Source: Lentimicrobiaceae bacterium (GTDB lineage Bacteria; Bacteroidota; Bacteroidia; Bacteroidales; UBA4417). Taken from it: a stretch of 64,000 nt of DNA. The stretch spans positions 38,499 to 102,498 of the forward strand of contig JBAZWY010000012.1 in the NCBI GenBank assembly GCA_041660125.1, in the 5' to 3' direction. Below the pieces are notes generated by a model. It worked only from the letters and a program-made list of their open reading frames with translations. It was not told the DNA's origin and did not search any database. Position numbers and translations under genes: made by a program. Position 1 is the first letter of the stretch; every line of letters begins with the position of its first letter. This document shows, piece by piece, positions 4,507 to 63,847 of the stretch.

Positions 4507-5608
4507 ATGAACATTGGCGAAATACTCATCTATCAAAATCCGGAAGGCAGCATCAAAGTTGATGTTCGGCTTGAGGAAGAAACGGTATGGCTCACACAGG
4601 AGCAAATGGCTATCCTTTTTGGAAAAGCCAGGAATACCATCACCGAACACATTCAAAATGTTTTTAAAGAAGGCGAGTTGGACGAAAAAGTGGTATGTCG
4701 GGATTTCCGACACACCACTCAACATGGCGCTATACAAGGAAAAACGCAGGAAATATCTGTAAAATATTATAACCTCGATGTTATTATTTCGGTAGGTTAT
4801 CGTGTAAAATCTCAACAAGGTACTCAGTTTCGCCTCTGGGCAACTCAAAGACTGAAAGAATATATCGTAAAAGGCTTTGCTTTAAACGACGAACGCTTTA
4901 AATCAGGCACTTCGCTGAATTATTTCAACGAACTGCAGCAGCGCATCCGCGAAATCCGCTTATCCGAACGTTTTTTCTATCAGAAAATAAAAGATATTTA
5001 CGCCACCAGCATCGATTATAACCCAAAGGACGAAAAAACGGTAGAGTTTTTTAAAATCGTTCAGAACAAACTGCTCTGGGCCATTTCGCAAAATACGGCA
5101 GCCGAATTGGTGTATCGCCGGGTTGATGCTTCACTACCCCTGCTCGGTATGCAGTCATTCGACAAAACCGGTACCAAAGCCATCGCTAAATCCGATGTAA
5201 ATATTGCCAAAAACTATTTGAAAGAGGATGAAACGAGCCATGCCAATAAATTGTTGCACAGGGTGATGGTTATTCATGGCGAGTTCCATGTGACCCGTAA
5301 AAATTAAGAAATAATCACATGAAATAAAACTCCTTGGATTGCTGGTAGAACAATACCTGGCCTTTGCCGAAACTATGGCACAGCAACAATCTCCTATGTA
5401 TATGCACGACTGGATTGCCCGTTTGGATAGCATTCTGCAATTAAATGGCCGCGAATTGCTCACCCATACTGGCAAAATCAGTCATGATTTAGCTTCGCAA
5501 AAATCAGCATTGGAATACGATAAGTTTAAAGCAACTCAAAATCTGCTCGAAAAAGAGCAAAGCCTGAAAGAGATTGAGGAAGATATAAAGAAACTGAAGA
5601 AGCCATAA
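4507..5608 (+). pseudogene. RhuM-family (virulence/defence-island associated) gene, interrupted by a 91-bp insertion
   Basis: The N-terminal part (frame 1, 4507-5232) reads MNIGEILIYQNPEG...NIAKNYLKEDE. The C-terminal part (frame 2, from 5324) continues IKLLGLLVEQYLAFAE...PMYMHDWIARLD...GKISHDLA. Joining across 5233-5323 restores one continuous RhuM-like protein. Confidence 0.8.
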
Positions 5609-32385: not shown

Positions 32386-33579
32386 ATGAATCTTCACGAA
32401 TACCAGGCAAAGCAAATTTTAAGCAGTTTCGGAGTACCTGTGCCCAGGGGCATCATGGCCGAAACTATTGAGCAGGCAGTGGATGCTGCTAAAGAAATTC
32501 AGAAATTAAGCGGATCGCAGTATTGTGTTGTCAAAGCACAGATCCATGCCGGGGGCCGTGGGAAAGGCGGTGGTGTAAAGCTGGCCAAATCGCTTGACGA
32601 CGCTCGCGAAAAAGTTACCAACATATTGGGGATGAATCTTATAACTCCTCAAACAAGTGCCCAGGGTAAACTGGTACGTAAGGTTTTGATCCAGGAAGAT
32701 GTGTATTATCCGGGCGTTTCCAAAACCAGGGAGTTCTACCTGAGCATGTTGCTGAACCGCCAGGAAGGAAAAGCGATGATCATGTATTCAACAGAAGGTG
32801 GGATGGATATCGAAGAAGTAGCTGAACACACACCGGAAAAGATTTTCGTTGAAATTATCGATCGGAAAGTCGGTTTACAACCTTTCCAATGCCGTAATGT
32901 TGCATTCAACCTCGGGCTTTCGGGCGAAGCGCATAAAAATATGGTGAAATTCGTGAAAGGCATTTACGATGCATACATGGGCGCTGATTGTACCATGCTC
33001 GAAATTAACCCGGTACTGAAAACCAGTGATGACAGAATCCTGGCTGTCGATTGTAAAATGCGCCTGGATGACAATGCTTTGTACCGACACATTGATTATA
33101 GTGCCATGCGCGATATTCACGAAGAAGATCCTTCGGAAGTAGAAGCCGGCAAGTATAACCTGAACTATGTAAAACTCAATGGAAATGTGGGTTGTATGGT
33201 GAACGGCGCAGGTTTGGCCATGGCTACCATGGATATCATTAAGCAGTGTGGAGGTGAGCCGGCAAACTTTCTTGATGTGGGTGGAACAGCCAATGCCGAA
33301 CGGGTTGAGCGCGCTTTCCGCATTATCCTGAAAGATCCTGCTGTAAAAGCAATTCTTGTCAATATTTTCGGAGGTATCGTGCGCTGCGACCGTGTAGCAC
33401 AGGGAATTGTTGATGCATACAAGAATATTGGCAATATTCCTATCCCTATCATTGTAAGGTTGCAGGGTACCAATGCCGAAGAAGCCAAGGAACTCATCAA
33501 TAATTCGGGACTTGCGGTTTATTCGGCTACCACTTTGCAGGAAGCTGCGGATCTGGTGAATAAGGTTTTGAAAAATTAA
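32386..33579 (+). CDS. sucC: Succinate-CoA ligase (ADP-forming) beta subunit
   Basis: 397 aa. MNLHEYQAKQIL..., ATP-grasp region, GCMVNGAGLAMATMD, NIFGGIVRCD. Confidence 0.95.
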   Translation: MNLHEYQAKQILSSFGVPVPRGIMAETIEQAVDAAKEIQKLSGSQYCVVKAQIHAGGRGKGGGVKLAKSLDDAREKVTNILGMNLITPQTSAQGKLVRKVLIQEDVYYPGVSKTREFYLSMLLNRQEGKAMIMYSTEGGMDIEEVAEHTPEKIFVEIIDRKVGLQPFQCRNVAFNLGLSGEAHKNMVKFVKGIYDAYMGADCTMLEINPVLKTSDDRILAVDCKMRLDDNALYRHIDYSAMRDIHEEDPSEVEAGKYNLNYVKLNGNVGCMVNGAGLAMATMDIIKQCGGEPANFLDVGGTANAERVERAFRIILKDPAVKAILVNIFGGIVRCDRVAQGIVDAYKNIGNIPIPIIVRLQGTNAEEAKELINNSGLAVYSATTLQEAADLVNKVLKN

Positions 33580-33671
33580 ATTTTAATTCACTGGATTGCA
33601 AATCCAATACTCTTTGGGTGCGGATCGCAGATCCGCCTCAGCAATCCGCACCAGCAACTTCTACCAGTACT

Positions 33672-33707
33672 AAAAATGCACCTTGTAAATCACAAGGTGC
33701 ATTTTTA
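33672..33707. terminator. Strong bidirectional rho-independent terminator after sucC
   Basis: Stem ATGCACCTTGT (33676-33686) / ACAAGGTGCAT (33692-33702), flanked by AAAAA and TTTTT. Confidence 0.85.
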
Positions 33708-33975
33708 GCTTCATGGAAATTGATTTTATCGGTTCTGTTTTAAAACATTGTAGGAATATTTTTTATCAGAAGTTCCAGGATCCATATGCCGGGTGCCACA
33801 GTTCTTAATTTCGATCCTGCTTATTTAGATGTTTTAAGAATTATTGACAGCACACATGTTTAAATCGGCAGAAGCCTGTTTGCTGTAGGCACAACGGAAC
33901 ACGGAACACGGAACTTTTATCTTGTTGTAGTTACAAATCTGGCAATTTTCAACAATCTTCCTAAACAGAACCATT

Positions 33976-35352
33976 TTATTTAAACGCCAACTCAATCGGA
34001 TGTGTCTGCCCTTCAATATCACTCAACATAGCGTCATCAAAAATAAAGTTAGTCAGCTTATTGTCGAGGTATTGCTGGTAGGCATACATATCGAAATAAC
34101 CATGACCGCTCAGGTTGAAAAGAATGGTTTTTGGCGTGTTTTCGGCTTTGGCTTTTAAAGCTTCACGGATAGTGTATGCAATGGCATGAGAAGTTTCAGG
34201 TGCCGGAAGAATTCCCTCTGCTTGTGCAAATTTTAAACCTGCTTCAAAACATTCAAGCTGATCAAGAGCCTGTGCTTCAACAATACCTTCGTTCACCAGC
34301 GCACTAATCAAAGGAGCTGCCCCATGATAACGTAATCCACCGGCATGAATTCCGGGCGGGATAAAATCGTGACCAAGTGTATGCATGGGTAGGAGAGGAG
34401 TCATGCCGGCCACATCGCCGAAATCGTACCTGAATTTTCCTTTTGTAAGTTTCGGACAGGAGGAAGGTTCAACGGAAATAAACCTGGTTTTCTTTTTCCC
34501 GTCGAGATTATGCCGTATAAAAGGGAAAGAAATTCCTGCAAAATTCGACCCACCGCCTAAACATCCGATAACGATATCAGGATAATCACCAATTTTTTCA
34601 AATTGCTTTTCAGCTTCGAGACCAATAATGGTCTGATGCAACAACACATGATTTAATACACTTCCAAGTGCGTATTTAGTATTTGGATCGGCTACAGCTA
34701 ATTCCATAGCTTCGCTGATAGCAATACCAAGACTACCCGGACTGTCGGGAAACTTTGCAAGTATATCACGTCCTGCTTTGGTGGTTAGGCTGGGCGATGC
34801 TTCAACTCTTGCATTCCAGAGGTTCATCAGCATTTTGCGATAGGGTTTCTGGTCGAAACTCACCTTTACCATAAAAACCTGCAAATCAATTCCAAAATGA
34901 TTGCATGCGAAAGCAAGTGCGCTGCCCCATTGTCCGGCACCGGTTTCGGTAGTGATTTTTTTAATGCCTTCCATCTTGTTGAAATATGCCTGTGGAATGG
35001 CCGTATTGGTTTTGTGCGAACCCGCCGGGCTTACACCTTCGTACTTGTAGTAGATTTTTGCCGGGGTACCAAGCATTTTTTCAAGGTTAACAGCCCTGTA
35101 AAGTGGTGAAGGTCTGAACATGCTGTATAGCTGGCGAACTTCATCAGGAATATTAATAAATCGTTCGCTCGACATTTCCTGACGAATCAATTCATCGGGG
35201 GAAATAGCGCTCATCGAGGCGCCGTCAATTGGTTTCAGTGTTCCCGGATGAAGAGGCGGCAACATTTTGCCTCCAAGGTCGGCAGCAATATTATACCATT
35301 TAGTTGGCATTTCTTCAGGTAAAAGCACAATGTTTCGTTTGTTGTTTTGCAT
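33976..35352 (-). CDS. trpB: TrpB2-type tryptophan synthase beta chain (stand-alone)
   Basis: About 458 aa from ATG 35352 (MQNNKRNIVLLPEEMPTKWYNI...). PLP-Lys motif SPAGSHKTNTA and GGGSNFAGI. The extended N-terminus is typical of TrpB2. Confidence 0.85.
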   Translation of the reverse strand: MQNNKRNIVLLPEEMPTKWYNIAADLGGKMLPPLHPGTLKPIDGASMSAISPDELIRQEMSSERFINIPDEVRQLYSMFRPSPLYRAVNLEKMLGTPAKIYYKYEGVSPAGSHKTNTAIPQAYFNKMEGIKKITTETGAGQWGSALAFACNHFGIDLQVFMVKVSFDQKPYRKMLMNLWNARVEASPSLTTKAGRDILAKFPDSPGSLGIAISEAMELAVADPNTKYALGSVLNHVLLHQTIIGLEAEKQFEKIGDYPDIVIGCLGGGSNFAGISFPFIRHNLDGKKKTRFISVEPSSCPKLTKGKFRYDFGDVAGMTPLLPMHTLGHDFIPPGIHAGGLRYHGAAPLISALVNEGIVEAQALDQLECFEAGLKFAQAEGILPAPETSHAIAYTIREALKAKAENTPKTILFNLSGHGYFDMYAYQQYLDNKLTNFIFDDAMLSDIEGQTHPIELAFK

Positions 35353-35386: not shown

Positions 35387-35420
35387 GAAAACGAAAAGGG
35401 CACATCGTAACGATGTGCCC
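35387..35420 (-). promoter_or_regulatory. Intrinsic terminator inside the trpB2 5' leader (attenuator)
   Basis: Minus strand GGGCACATCG-TTA-CGATGTGCCC followed by TTTTCGTTTTC, ending 35 nt upstream of the trpB2 start. Confidence 0.7.
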
Positions 35421-35459
35421 TTCAATTGAGTATTCTTATATTTATTTACATACCCGGGA

Positions 35460-35528
35460 TTACGCTACGATGTGCATTAGCCATCGGCGCCACCAATTAT
35501 TTGTAAGAGTATGTTTAAAATTGGTCAT
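35460..35528 (-). CDS. Trp-rich leader peptide (22 aa) of the trpB2 attenuator
   Basis: The minus-strand ORF atgaccaat...tggtggcgccgatgg...taa translates to MTNFKHTLTNNWWRRWLMHIVA*. It starts 17 nt downstream of the -7 box. Confidence 0.6.
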   Translation of the reverse strand: MTNFKHTLTNNWWRRWLMHIVA

Positions 35529-35545
35529 TGGGTGTATTTGTGATG

Positions 35546-35553
35546 CAAAGATA
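35546..35553 (-). promoter_or_regulatory. Candidate -7 box TATCTTTG driving the trp leader
   Basis: Plus-strand caaagata, positioned 17 nt upstream of the leader ATG (35528). Confidence 0.5.
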
Positions 35554-36022
35554 AATAAATAGTAATTCCGGTTGCAAAAAGATCCTTTTTTTTGCTTCAA
35601 TATTTCTTATCATTCATTCTTTAGTAATCCGTCAGATAAATCTGACGGCCAGGAAAGGTTCAAATCACACTTTGAACTTACATTAGAGAATTGATTTTTA
35701 ATCAGCTAATAATTGATCCAGACTTACTAAAGTCTGATATAACAATAGATTGACGATGGATTTATTACAGTTTGGCTTTAGCCAACTGAAAATAGAATAA
35801 ATACTTTATTTCGAATTAACACAATTTTTTCCCTCAGTGGATACCAGCACAATTAATTTATTTGAAGTGTTCTTATACCTTTTATTTCTGTATACTTAAC
35901 TATAGTTTTGCCGATTCACTACTATTGCATTTCAAAGCCTCATTTCTGATTGTGCAGCTGACTCAAGTTTATTGAAGACTTCTTTTGCATTTCGTTCATT
36001 AGGCTACAATTCCCATTTCAAT

Positions 36023-36056: not shown

Positions 36057-36812
36057 ATGCAAACAGCCGAACGCAGCTCCGGGCACGATCCTTCAGAACA
36101 GGTAATTTACAACAGGTGCCTTTATGCCTACAAGGCTGCTTCAGAATTAGTAAAAGGCAATATTATTGAACTTGGAAGCGGCGAAGGTTATGGTATTAAA
36201 ATGCTGGCTCCTTTGGCTCAACATTACCTTGCTGTCGATAAATTTGATACCGATATTTCGGGCCATGCCAATGTGGAATTTCGTAAACAATTATTGCCTT
36301 CTTTGGCCGGTATTGCTGATAATACATTTGATTTCGCGGTTACTTTCCAGGTTATTGAGCATATACAGGATGATAAAACTTTTATAAAGGAAATACACCG
36401 GGTACTTAAACCAGGTGGCGTTTTAATGCTTACCACGCCAAACCATCCGATGTCGCTAACCCGCAATCCATGGCATATCCGCGAATATACTGCTGATGAA
36501 CTGGCTTCGGTTGTTGGTAAAAGTTTTGGTAAAGTGGAGGTGAAAGGCGTATTTGGTAGTCCGGTTGTAATGGACTACCATGAAAGAAATAAAACTTCGG
36601 TTCATCGCATTACAAGGTTTGATATTTTAAAATTGCAATACAGGCTTCCGCGCCGGCTGTTGCAAATACCCTATGATATAATGAACCGGCTTAACCGCCG
36701 CAAATTGCTGAAAGGCAATACCGATATTGTGAATAAGGTTTCACTTTCCGATTTCTTTCTGAAAGGTACTACTGATAACTGTTTCGATTTGTTTGTTGTG
36801 GCTACGAAATAG
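36057..36812 (+). CDS. Class I SAM-dependent methyltransferase
   Basis: 251 aa. Motif I IIELGSGEGYG and post-I DKFD. LKPGGVLMLTTPN is typical of the Methyltransf_11/23 class. Confidence 0.8.
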   Translation: MQTAERSSGHDPSEQVIYNRCLYAYKAASELVKGNIIELGSGEGYGIKMLAPLAQHYLAVDKFDTDISGHANVEFRKQLLPSLAGIADNTFDFAVTFQVIEHIQDDKTFIKEIHRVLKPGGVLMLTTPNHPMSLTRNPWHIREYTADELASVVGKSFGKVEVKGVFGSPVVMDYHERNKTSVHRITRFDILKLQYRLPRRLLQIPYDIMNRLNRRKLLKGNTDIVNKVSLSDFFLKGTTDNCFDLFVVATK

Positions 36813-58080: not shown

Positions 58081-58111
58081 GGGTACCTCAATTTCTGAGG
58101 TACCCTTTTTT
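58081..58111 (+). terminator. Rho-independent terminator
   Basis: Stem GGGTACCTCA (58081-58090) / TGAGGTACCC (58096-58105), followed by TTTTTT. Confidence 0.75.
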
Positions 58112-62992: not shown

Positions 62993-63847
62993 ATGAAAGG
63001 AATCTTGTTTCTCTTGATTTGTAGCCTGTCAATTAATAGCGCGTTGATGGCCCAGAAAGAAATTAAATTGTATAAAAACGGACCAGCAGAGAATAGTGGA
63101 ATTACTGAAAAGGAAGTAAACCACGATAATACGTGGGTTACCGGTGTCACGGAAGCGCGCATGTACGCTTATCTTGTTCCTAAAGAAAAAGCCACCGGAG
63201 TAGCAGTATTAATATGTCCCGGAGGTGGCTATGGTGGTCTTGCGGTTGAGCATGAAGGTTCGCAGGTAGCTATCTGGCTTAATTCGATCGGTATTTCAGC
63301 ATTTGTACTTTATTATAGGATGCCGAACCAACATTGGGAAATCCCATTGACAGACGCCCAAACTGCGTTGGAAATAATTAGAAAGAGCGCTAAAAAATGG
63401 AACATCGACAAATCCAAAATCGGAATCATTGGTTTTTCGGCAGGTGGACACCTAGCTTCCACAGCCGGAACACAGTTTACAAAGAAAAGCAGGCCTGATT
63501 TTATGGTTCTGGTCTATCCTGTGATTTCTATGACCGGTGATGGCACAAGCATTAATCTGATCGGGGAAAACCCATCGGATGATCTGAAGAAACGTTTTTC
63601 CAGCGAATTGCAGGTTAGCAAAAACACTCCTCCAACTCTTATTATTGCTGCACTAGACGATGATGTGGTTCCGGTTGAACACAGTTTTATGTTTTACAAA
63701 GCACTTCAGGCGAAAAATATTCCTTGCGAAATACATACCTATGCTAAGGGAGGTCATGGTTTTGGCATGCACAAAAATGGACTGGATGTTGACCATTGGC
63801 CTGATCTGGTTAAGGAATGGCTGAAAACAAACAAACTGATTTACTGA
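62993..63847 (+). CDS. Secreted alpha/beta-hydrolase esterase
   Basis: 284 aa with a signal peptide. Oxyanion CPGGGY, nucleophile elbow GFSAGGHLA, and Asp/His in DDDVVP...GGHGF. Confidence 0.85.
   Translation: MKGILFLLICSLSINSALMAQKEIKLYKNGPAENSGITEKEVNHDNTWVTGVTEARMYAYLVPKEKATGVAVLICPGGGYGGLAVEHEGSQVAIWLNSIGISAFVLYYRMPNQHWEIPLTDAQTALEIIRKSAKKWNIDKSKIGIIGFSAGGHLASTAGTQFTKKSRPDFMVLVYPVISMTGDGTSINLIGENPSDDLKKRFSSELQVSKNTPPTLIIAALDDDVVPVEHSFMFYKALQAKNIPCEIHTYAKGGHGFGMHKNGLDVDHWPDLVKEWLKTNKLIY

Follow-up and report, generated by a model that had tools for sequence, protein, structure and literature searches.

A tryptophan-codon leader in front of trpB2

The 64-kb stretch of a Lentimicrobiaceae contig that was analyzed here (JBAZWY010000012.1, positions 38,499 to 102,498; hereafter the window) carries on its minus strand a short leader between a putative promoter and trpB2, a stand-alone gene for a TrpB-like pyridoxal phosphate enzyme. 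We consider this leader to be a classical ribosome-mediated transcription attenuator through which the availability of charged tRNA-Trp would govern the expression of trpB2, and we assign this reading a probability of roughly 85%. Sequence elements, their conservation, and alternative folds were computed, and from these we infer translation of the leader, ribosome stalling, termination, and the response to tryptophan.

All elements of the leader were found on the minus strand. The putative promoter consists of a −7 box of the TAnnTTTG type, TATCTTTG (35553-35546), and a −33-like TTTG located 21 nt further upstream (35578-35575), the latter being found in many, not all, relatives; both resemble the Bacteroidota promoter consensus (−33 TTTG, −7 TAnnTTTG), and transcription is predicted to start at about 35541-35539. 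An open reading frame (ORF) of 22 codons plus stop, MTNFKHTLTNNWWRRWLMHIVA*, follows with its ATG at 35528 and its TAA ending at 35460, and is indicated by both sequence and conservation. Its regulatory codons UGG UGG CGC CGA UGG (35495-35481) specify Trp12, Trp13, Arg14, Arg15, and Trp16. An intrinsic terminator hairpin, GGGCACAUCG-UUA-CGAUGUGCCC (regions 3 and 4; 35420-35398), is followed by the U-tract UUUUCGUUUUC (35397-35387), where the attenuated transcript is predicted to end. The hairpin has a G+C-rich stem of a perfect 10 bp, or 13 pairs when flanking A-U pairs are added. A preliminary description, made from the letters of the window, had placed the −7 box, the 22-codon ORF with three Trp in five codons, the hairpin, and its tail at these minus-strand positions, and all were recovered there; the distance of about 35 nt that it gave between terminator and trpB2 was likewise reproduced, with the tail ending at 35387 and the ATG at 35352.

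The putative regulated gene, trpB2 (35352-33976, minus strand), encodes 458 aa and matches NF009057 over its full length (715 bits, cut-off 366). A methyltransferase gene (36057-36812, plus strand) lies divergently upstream and sucC (32386-33579, plus strand) convergently downstream, and a bidirectional terminator, AAAAATGCACCTTGT-AAATC-ACAAGGTGCATTTTT (33672-33706, both strands), was read from the sequence as common to sucC and trpB2. Since this terminator closes the unit, trpB2 appears to be monocistronic, in agreement with its earlier designation as an isolated TrpB2-type gene.

The combination of elements is uncommon in the window. At least three Trp within five codons were detected in only 2 of 1,167 mini-ORFs (8-60 aa), and a terminator followed the leader ORF only. 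The other such mini-ORF, MSRRWLWWSCG at 63214 (plus strand), had no associated terminator in the scan and is probably due to chance. A second candidate attenuator, an Ile-run mini-ORF at 58081-58105, was rejected as an ordinary gene terminator, the "ORF" being located inside the preceding coding region. The leader terminator is the sole strong one nearby, and the leader fold scored z = −3.96 against dinucleotide shuffles. We also weighed whether the hairpin could be an ordinary terminator, or a protein- or tRNA-driven switch (TRAP-like or T-box-like), with the mini-ORF incidental. Such an explanation can draw on the 2 loosely defined terminator-like hairpins found in the region versus 2.5 expected from shuffles, and on the T-box predicted to control trpB2 in a Firmicute (see below). 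It was judged extremely unlikely, given that (i) there is no upstream minus-strand gene to terminate, the neighbor at 36057-36812 being divergent; (ii) neither a T-box nor any other Rfam family was matched by the leader at three scales at E ≤ 10; (iii) a single UAG and no GAG in the leader leave no TRAP-type triplet array; and (iv) conservation of the ORF extends to its reading frame and its Trp codons. The T-box model RF00230, which gave no match to the window leader, can be relied upon because the same search found the Firmicute T-box at 118 bits. Rfam matches to GibS, CsrB, and FopS at the leader were discarded as terminator-only and on the wrong strand.

Conservation of the leader in close relatives

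Reference genomes were scanned with TrpB2, which yielded 80 loci. The close relatives among these were Bacteroidales/Lentimicrobiaceae metagenome-assembled genomes (MAGs) with a TrpB2 identity of 86-96%, and 21 of them had enough upstream sequence for comparison. In each of the 21, a 22-codon ORF ending ...WWRRWLMHIVA* (NNWWRRWLMHIVA) was found 105-110 nt before trpB2, and the terminator and −7 box were likewise present upstream of the gene. Across the 22 aligned sequences, the box read TAT[C/T/A]TTTG without exception and was positioned 17-20 nt before the leader ATG in 20, with insertions in two (L011 and L064); the five regulatory codons were invariant (22/22). A metagenome scan with the Trp-codon block gave 81 matches, including 64 chance matches in high-GC genomes and 17 true leaders, one of which (contig L089) is from the same species as the window. 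The gene trpB2 was located 139-148 nt after the Trp run in all 14 metagenome leaders with downstream sequence; as every one of these runs into trpB2, this type of leader is dedicated to that gene. The 17 metagenome sequences brought almost no new variation. The WW..W mini-ORF and hairpin of the preliminary description were thus found to be conserved before trpB2 in both collections (21 reference genomes and 17 metagenome contigs), with the ORF constant at 22 codons and in frame, the flanking spacers varying by indels, and the whole arrangement kept in about 38 independent sequences.

Conservation was unevenly distributed along the leader. Two blocks were near-invariant: (i) about 52 nt, from the Trp codons to 16 nt beyond the stop codon; and (ii) about 36 nt, covering the terminator with its loop and the U-tract. 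Three stretches showed drift and indels, namely, the codons for the N-terminus, the A/U-rich spacer, and the sequence preceding the promoter. The segment CCCGGGUAU, just past the stop codon, was invariant in the 22 reference-genome sequences and read CCCAGG in one metagenome contig (L144). For comparison, the trpB2 coding sequence (CDS) displayed 80% nucleotide identity, and among 306 trpB2 codons with an invariant amino acid, the third base was invariant in only 3.6%; the leader codons CGC, CGA, CAC, GUA, GCG, and UAA were identical in 22/22. The invariance of the leader exceeds the conservation of its peptide, therefore pointing to selection on the RNA.

This degree of conservation, with blocks of about 52 and 36 nt almost invariant next to a CDS of 80% identity, and the presence of a predicted promoter and a strong terminator of its own, could also suggest that the unit of about 150 nt from promoter to terminator is mainly an independent small RNA, or a dual-function leader, with the RNA or the peptide acting in trans. 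Trans-acting rnTrpL and peTrpL have reportedly been described in Sinorhizobium. We find this reading unlikely, as overlapping constraints (peptide coding plus three alternative pairings) already account for the invariance, trpB2 always comes directly after the element, and in other lineages a Trp run and a terminator are kept although the sequence is unrelated; it is, moreover, compatible with attenuation. It seems to us just as unlikely that the near-invariant attenuated RNA (about 150 nt), or the peptide of 22 aa, serves as a cis switch and also acts in trans on other transcripts, as reported for Sinorhizobium; if true, it would represent a Trp-status riboregulator in Lentimicrobiaceae-like Bacteroidales.

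Mutually exclusive folds and ribosome position

Folding of the leader was performed with and without a ribosome footprint. In the unconstrained minimum free energy (MFE) structure, two hairpins were formed: the terminator, and upstream of it a hairpin between region 1, GCGCCGAUGGC (35490-35480), and region 2, GCACAUCGUAGCG (35475-35463). Region 1 overlaps the Arg-Arg-Trp codons and provides the 5′ arm of this 1:2 anti-antiterminator hairpin, while region 2 ends at the leader stop codon and has two alternative partners, region 1 or the terminator loop plus 3′ arm. The pairing of CGCCGAUG with CAUCG..GCG, which had been proposed earlier, corresponds to this first hairpin. It has 11 pairs and was paired in 100% of cells across the 22 sequences; three of the pairs vary, on one side only and always to G-U. 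Region 2 was also found to be complementary over 13 bp to CGUUACGAUGUGC (35412-35400), which takes in the final 2 nt of the terminator 5′ arm together with the loop and 8 nt from the 3′ arm. Taken alone, this helix has a free energy of −20.6 kcal/mol versus −18.2 for the terminator stem. The competition originally proposed between two copies of the octamer GCACAUCG was therefore right as to the duplication, which is real, but fell short as to the structure, which is larger, spanning 13 bp including the loop plus a CCC:GGG clamp.

The outcome of folding depended on where the ribosome was placed. With the footprint at Trp-13, the MFE structure was an antiterminator composed of the 13-bp helix; a clamp in which the CCC of CCCGGGUAU (35458-35450) pairs with GGG at the base of the terminator 5′ arm; and a small hairpin between GGGUAU of the same segment and AUACUC (35433-35428), the latter supported by the fold and by pair counts. 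The terminator was the MFE structure when the footprint covered the stop codon and also when no ribosome was included. In a transcript-length series with a stalled ribosome, CCC:GGG formed as the 5′ arm emerged, UAGCG:CGUUA nucleated with the loop, and the helix zipped along the 3′ arm, such that the antiterminator was the MFE structure from emergence of the loop until the 3′ arm was complete. Once the U-tract was added, the antiterminator stayed the MFE structure for Trp-13, and for Trp-12 the terminator fold was 0.2 kcal/mol lower. Constrained and cotranscriptional folding thus identified terminator and antiterminator states set by ribosome position, as had been anticipated in the preliminary description. 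Because both states are nearly isoenergetic at equilibrium, the switch would have to be kinetic, and the transcript-length series is in favor of such a route.

Further support for the alternative pairing was obtained from a duplex test and from the relatives. When the part of the leader that a stalled ribosome leaves free was paired with the whole terminator, the best duplex had an energy of −27.0 kcal/mol (z = −4.97), which was reached by 0 of 300 shuffles. Among the 22 sequences, 96-97% of cells were paired in both states, with the 13-bp antiterminator helix paired in 99.7% of cells and GGGUAU:AUACUC the least conserved helix at 89%; the terminator hairpin, including its loop, was nearly invariant. 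The six substitutions observed in region 2 of the relatives were all transitions (A to G, C to U) and kept both pairings.

Proposed mechanism

In the model that we favor, transcription would begin a few bases past the −7 box, and a ribosome would translate the 22-codon leader. When Trp-tRNA is plentiful, the ribosome would reach the UAA and mask region 2, because region 2 ends exactly at the stop codon, and after release region 2 may pair with region 1; either way, the terminator 3:4 hairpin would form, and RNA polymerase would halt in the U-tract, some 35 nt short of trpB2. A shortage of Trp-tRNA would instead stall the ribosome at Trp-12 or Trp-13, where it would cover region 1 and leave region 2 free. 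As the terminator emerges, CCC could then pair with GGG, followed by UAGCG with CGUUA (the last bases of the 5′ arm plus the loop), and the helix would zip along the 3′ arm to 13 bp, block the terminator, and allow trpB2 to be transcribed. TrpB2 would presumably then make tryptophan from scavenged indole and serine. A role of this kind is compatible with the B. thetaiotaomicron TrpB2, which rescues an E. coli trpA deletion only with indole cross-feeding (PMC11535334).

Masking of region 2 by a ribosome parked on the stop codon would favor termination, and the sign of regulation would also fit a TnaC-like arrest peptide in which WWRRWLMHIVA senses free Trp and holds the ribosome at the stop, the signal then not being tRNA charging. 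The 11 C-terminal residues are nearly invariant in the family, as expected of such a peptide. Nevertheless, synonymous positions are as invariant as amino acids, which indicates selection on the RNA; leaders of other lineages have the Trp run in common, not the peptide; no likeness to TnaC was noticed, although no comparison aimed at it was made; and a ribosome merely reaching the stop codon already accounts for termination. An arrest peptide is thus regarded as very unlikely.

Related leaders and known systems

Leader-peptide attenuation was called sparsely documented in this phylum in the preliminary description, a view that needs correction: Weinberg et al. 2010 (PMC2864571; RF01692) described Trp leaders before trpB1 and trpE. 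Their Bacteroid-trp (Additional file 1) is a presumed Trp peptide leader of Bacteroidetes located before trpB/trpE, for which "a loosely conserved hairpin" was noted, with no consensus diagram and no antiterminator proposed (Weinberg et al. 2010, PMC2864571). We examined the flanks of about 13 of the 48 RF01692 members and found no trpB2 target among them; the sampled members included one from B. vulgatus before a canonical TrpB1 (MKTYQVNKEGYYGEFGGAYIPE...) and five of Flavobacteriia/Cytophagia type before trpE. In Bacteroides, trpB1 is the gene with which the trp operon begins. These members share with the window leader (i) a short ORF (about 15-25 codons, at least 2 of them UGG), followed by an intrinsic terminator, before a Trp-synthesis gene in a Bacteroidota host; (ii) a stop-proximal segment (e.g., GUCGUAAG) for which the terminator loop and 3′ arm (CUUACGAC) serve as the pairing partner; and (iii) a C-rich segment coming next, whose partner is the base of the 5′ arm. 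The two-helix antiterminator was recovered by the duplex test in 4 of the 5 testable members (z = −2.6 to −3.2). The window leader differs from them in its target (trpB2, not trpB1 or trpE), its Trp cluster (WWRRW, not WWW), and its longer antiterminator helix (13 bp versus 7-9 bp).

Leaders with unrelated Trp-run peptides (WWW, WWWW, or WRWW) and a terminator were also identified before trpB2 in other families of Bacteroidota, including MTMTNIIKIQSRWWWWLFLLKKS (L023), ...NNWWWHSIINHTVN (L026), MRKLTLNTTWWWHSLKQ... (Mesonia), MTNRHSSNIWRWWRIHYKQW... (Dysgonomonadaceae), MSNRNFTYWWWRSRQ (the Prevotella MAG L059), and MNLFSAHTWWWRSQLI (the Alistipes MAG L041). The Trp run is the sole feature that they have in common with the window leader. 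Equilibrium folding with ribosome masks never displaced the very stable terminators of these distant leaders, and for this reason a duplex-versus-shuffle test was adopted. By this test, L023 (z = −3.4) and L026 (z = −4.2) repeat the geometry of the window, their stop-codon segment pairing with the terminator loop and the first part of the 3′ arm; the best duplex of L031, a Dysgonomonadaceae MAG, covers loop and 3′ arm at nominal strength only (z = −2.5, 7 of 300 shuffles). Mesonia and three of four Dysgonomonadaceae loci resemble classical 5′-arm pairing. When an alignment of six lineages was assembled (three trpB2, one trpB1, and two trpE leaders), a UCGU/ACGA core was found to be common to RF01692 members and trpB2 leaders. 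Compensatory changes were present in this alignment in 6 of the 9 pairs of the helix between stop segment and loop/3′ arm, values that 0 of 500 shuffles reached and that slid controls did not show. Overall, the conserved elements at fixed spacing, the mutually exclusive folds by ribosome position, and the independent Trp-run leaders are consistent with the classical trp-attenuation layout suggested in the preliminary description.

Three further observations were made at these distant loci. In the Alistipes MAG L041, the leader and hairpin GGGCUGUCGAACUCACGACAGCCC (about 4597-4760) have a weak U-tract and lie about 350 nt upstream of trpB2, with a GC-rich and highly structured spacer of about 250 nt in between. 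A Bacteroidales-1 RNA (RF01693, 118.7 bits) is located just downstream of trpB2 at 6455-6630 of L031, and an RT-5 RNA (RF03026, 88 bits) about 1 kb downstream of trpB2 at 7305-7410 of L059.

Despite these similarities, the window leader is not a member of RF01692 by model score. The window family gave no match to RF01692 at E ≤ 10, whether scanned as 5 kb, as 261 nt, or in the relatives L010 and L012; other trpB2 leaders were matched over the full length of the model at 41.2 (L059), 40.4 (L026), and 36.2 bits (L027), below the gathering cut-off of 49. The current Rfam model thus leaves an annotation gap, in that it misses the window leader family and places other trpB2 leaders just below threshold. 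Judged by its sequence features, the leader is best filed as an uncatalogued addition to the Bacteroidota Trp-leader kind, with stand-alone trpB2 as an apparently new target. Our literature search found no description of a Trp leader before trpB2 in Bacteroidota. Related reports were of B. thetaiotaomicron small ORFs in 5′ untranslated regions (UTRs) that are "reminiscent of leader peptides," given without trp examples (Ryan et al. 2020, PMC7366714), and of a predicted attenuator before trpB2A of Corynebacterium diphtheriae (Seliverstov et al. 2005, PMC1262725), which differs from the window leader in that its operon includes trpA, the phylum is another one, and the sequence is unrelated.

The trpL leader of enterobacteria has tandem Trp codons in a short leader ORF and can form a 1:2 hairpin, an antiterminator, or a 3:4 terminator; once a ribosome has reached the stop codon, the antiterminator strand is blocked. 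The window leader follows the same attenuation logic as trpL (RF00513) with no homology: the RF00513 model scored 14.8 bits on the leader (35390-35501, minus strand; E = 1.9), below its cut-off of 41. The two differ in that region 2 of the window leader captures the terminator loop and 3′ arm; it is unable to pair with the 5′ arm because both have the same sequence. In addition, the target in the window is a single salvage gene, whereas trpL controls a biosynthetic operon. Attenuators in Bacteroidetes/Chlorobi are also said to have been predicted by Vitreschak and colleagues in 2004. A different route to a similar end was detected in the Christensenellaceae MAG L079, where a T-box (593-829, 118 bits) lies directly before trpB2 and reads GAA-UGG-A in the place of the specifier. 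Both systems would tie trpB2 to tRNA-Trp by premature termination; the T-box, however, senses uncharged tRNA directly and without translation.

Evidence weighed against attenuation

A number of observations count against the attenuator model. The U-tract is broken by CG (UUUUCGUUUU). In the full-length leader with the ribosome stalled at Trp-12, the MFE structure is the terminator (−28.5 kcal/mol versus −27.8 for the antiterminator), and a ribosome stalled at Trp-16 still leaves the terminator fold. No covariation was found within the close family (22 sequences), where no pair had changed on both sides; compensatory changes are missing there because the stems are invariant. The covariation across lineages comes from an alignment of six sequences that is small, was fixed in register by hand, and was fitted to the structure. 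For Mesonia, three of four Dysgonomonadaceae loci, and L059, the antiterminator duplex was no better than shuffles (z = −0.5 to −1.7). About 30 other Bacteroidota trpB2 loci (Alistipes, Muribaculaceae, Bacteroides, and Proteiniphilum) had no leader within 500 nt, so the leader is lineage-restricted. Finally, we know of no demonstration of transcription-translation coupling in Bacteroidota. A working attenuator would imply that the leading ribosome keeps near RNA polymerase, in a phylum whose translation is initiated without Shine-Dalgarno sequences.

If the attenuator model is right, the findings would add stand-alone trpB2 to the targets of the Bacteroidota Trp peptide-leader system, which is known from the biosynthetic operon (trpB1, trpE), and would offer an explicit antiterminator model for the Bacteroid-trp class, namely, pairing of the stop-codon segment with the terminator loop and 3′ arm. 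The Bacteroidota leader and the Firmicute Trp T-box on trpB2 would together be regulatory evidence that TrpB2 supplies Trp at low Trp-tRNA, a role that fits indole salvage in anaerobic communities. To a specialist, the leader would be tidy rather than surprising.

Regions flanking the leader and trpB2

The intergenic region upstream of the promoter contains a perfect 8-bp inverted repeat, CCGTCAGA-TTTA-TCTGACGG (35629-35648, minus strand), located between the divergent genes about 75 nt upstream of the −7 box. It has no T-tract and could be a candidate protein-binding site.

Downstream of trpB2, the apparent bidirectional terminator is a symmetric A-tract/stem/T-tract hairpin. An equivalent hairpin (ACGCACCYTG...) was found 3′ of trpB2 in 13 of 13 relatives, usually at a distance of 20-80 nt from the trpB2 stop. 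The corresponding distance in the window is about 270 nt, so extra sequence appears to have been inserted there. The trpB2 3′ UTR includes three exact tandem GTTCCGT heptamers (33894-33914, minus strand), which were absent from the 13 relatives checked. A cluster of short palindromes, GGATTGCAAATCC, GCGGATCGCAGATCCGC, and GCTGGTGCGGATT, occupies 33590-33660. Lastly, the motif GCTGGTGCGGATTTGCA(ATCCGCAC), which resembles intergenic repeats of the REP type, was found again 3′ of the trpB2 terminator in several relatives (L006-L017), in some cases as tandem copies, and is present in the window as one exact copy.

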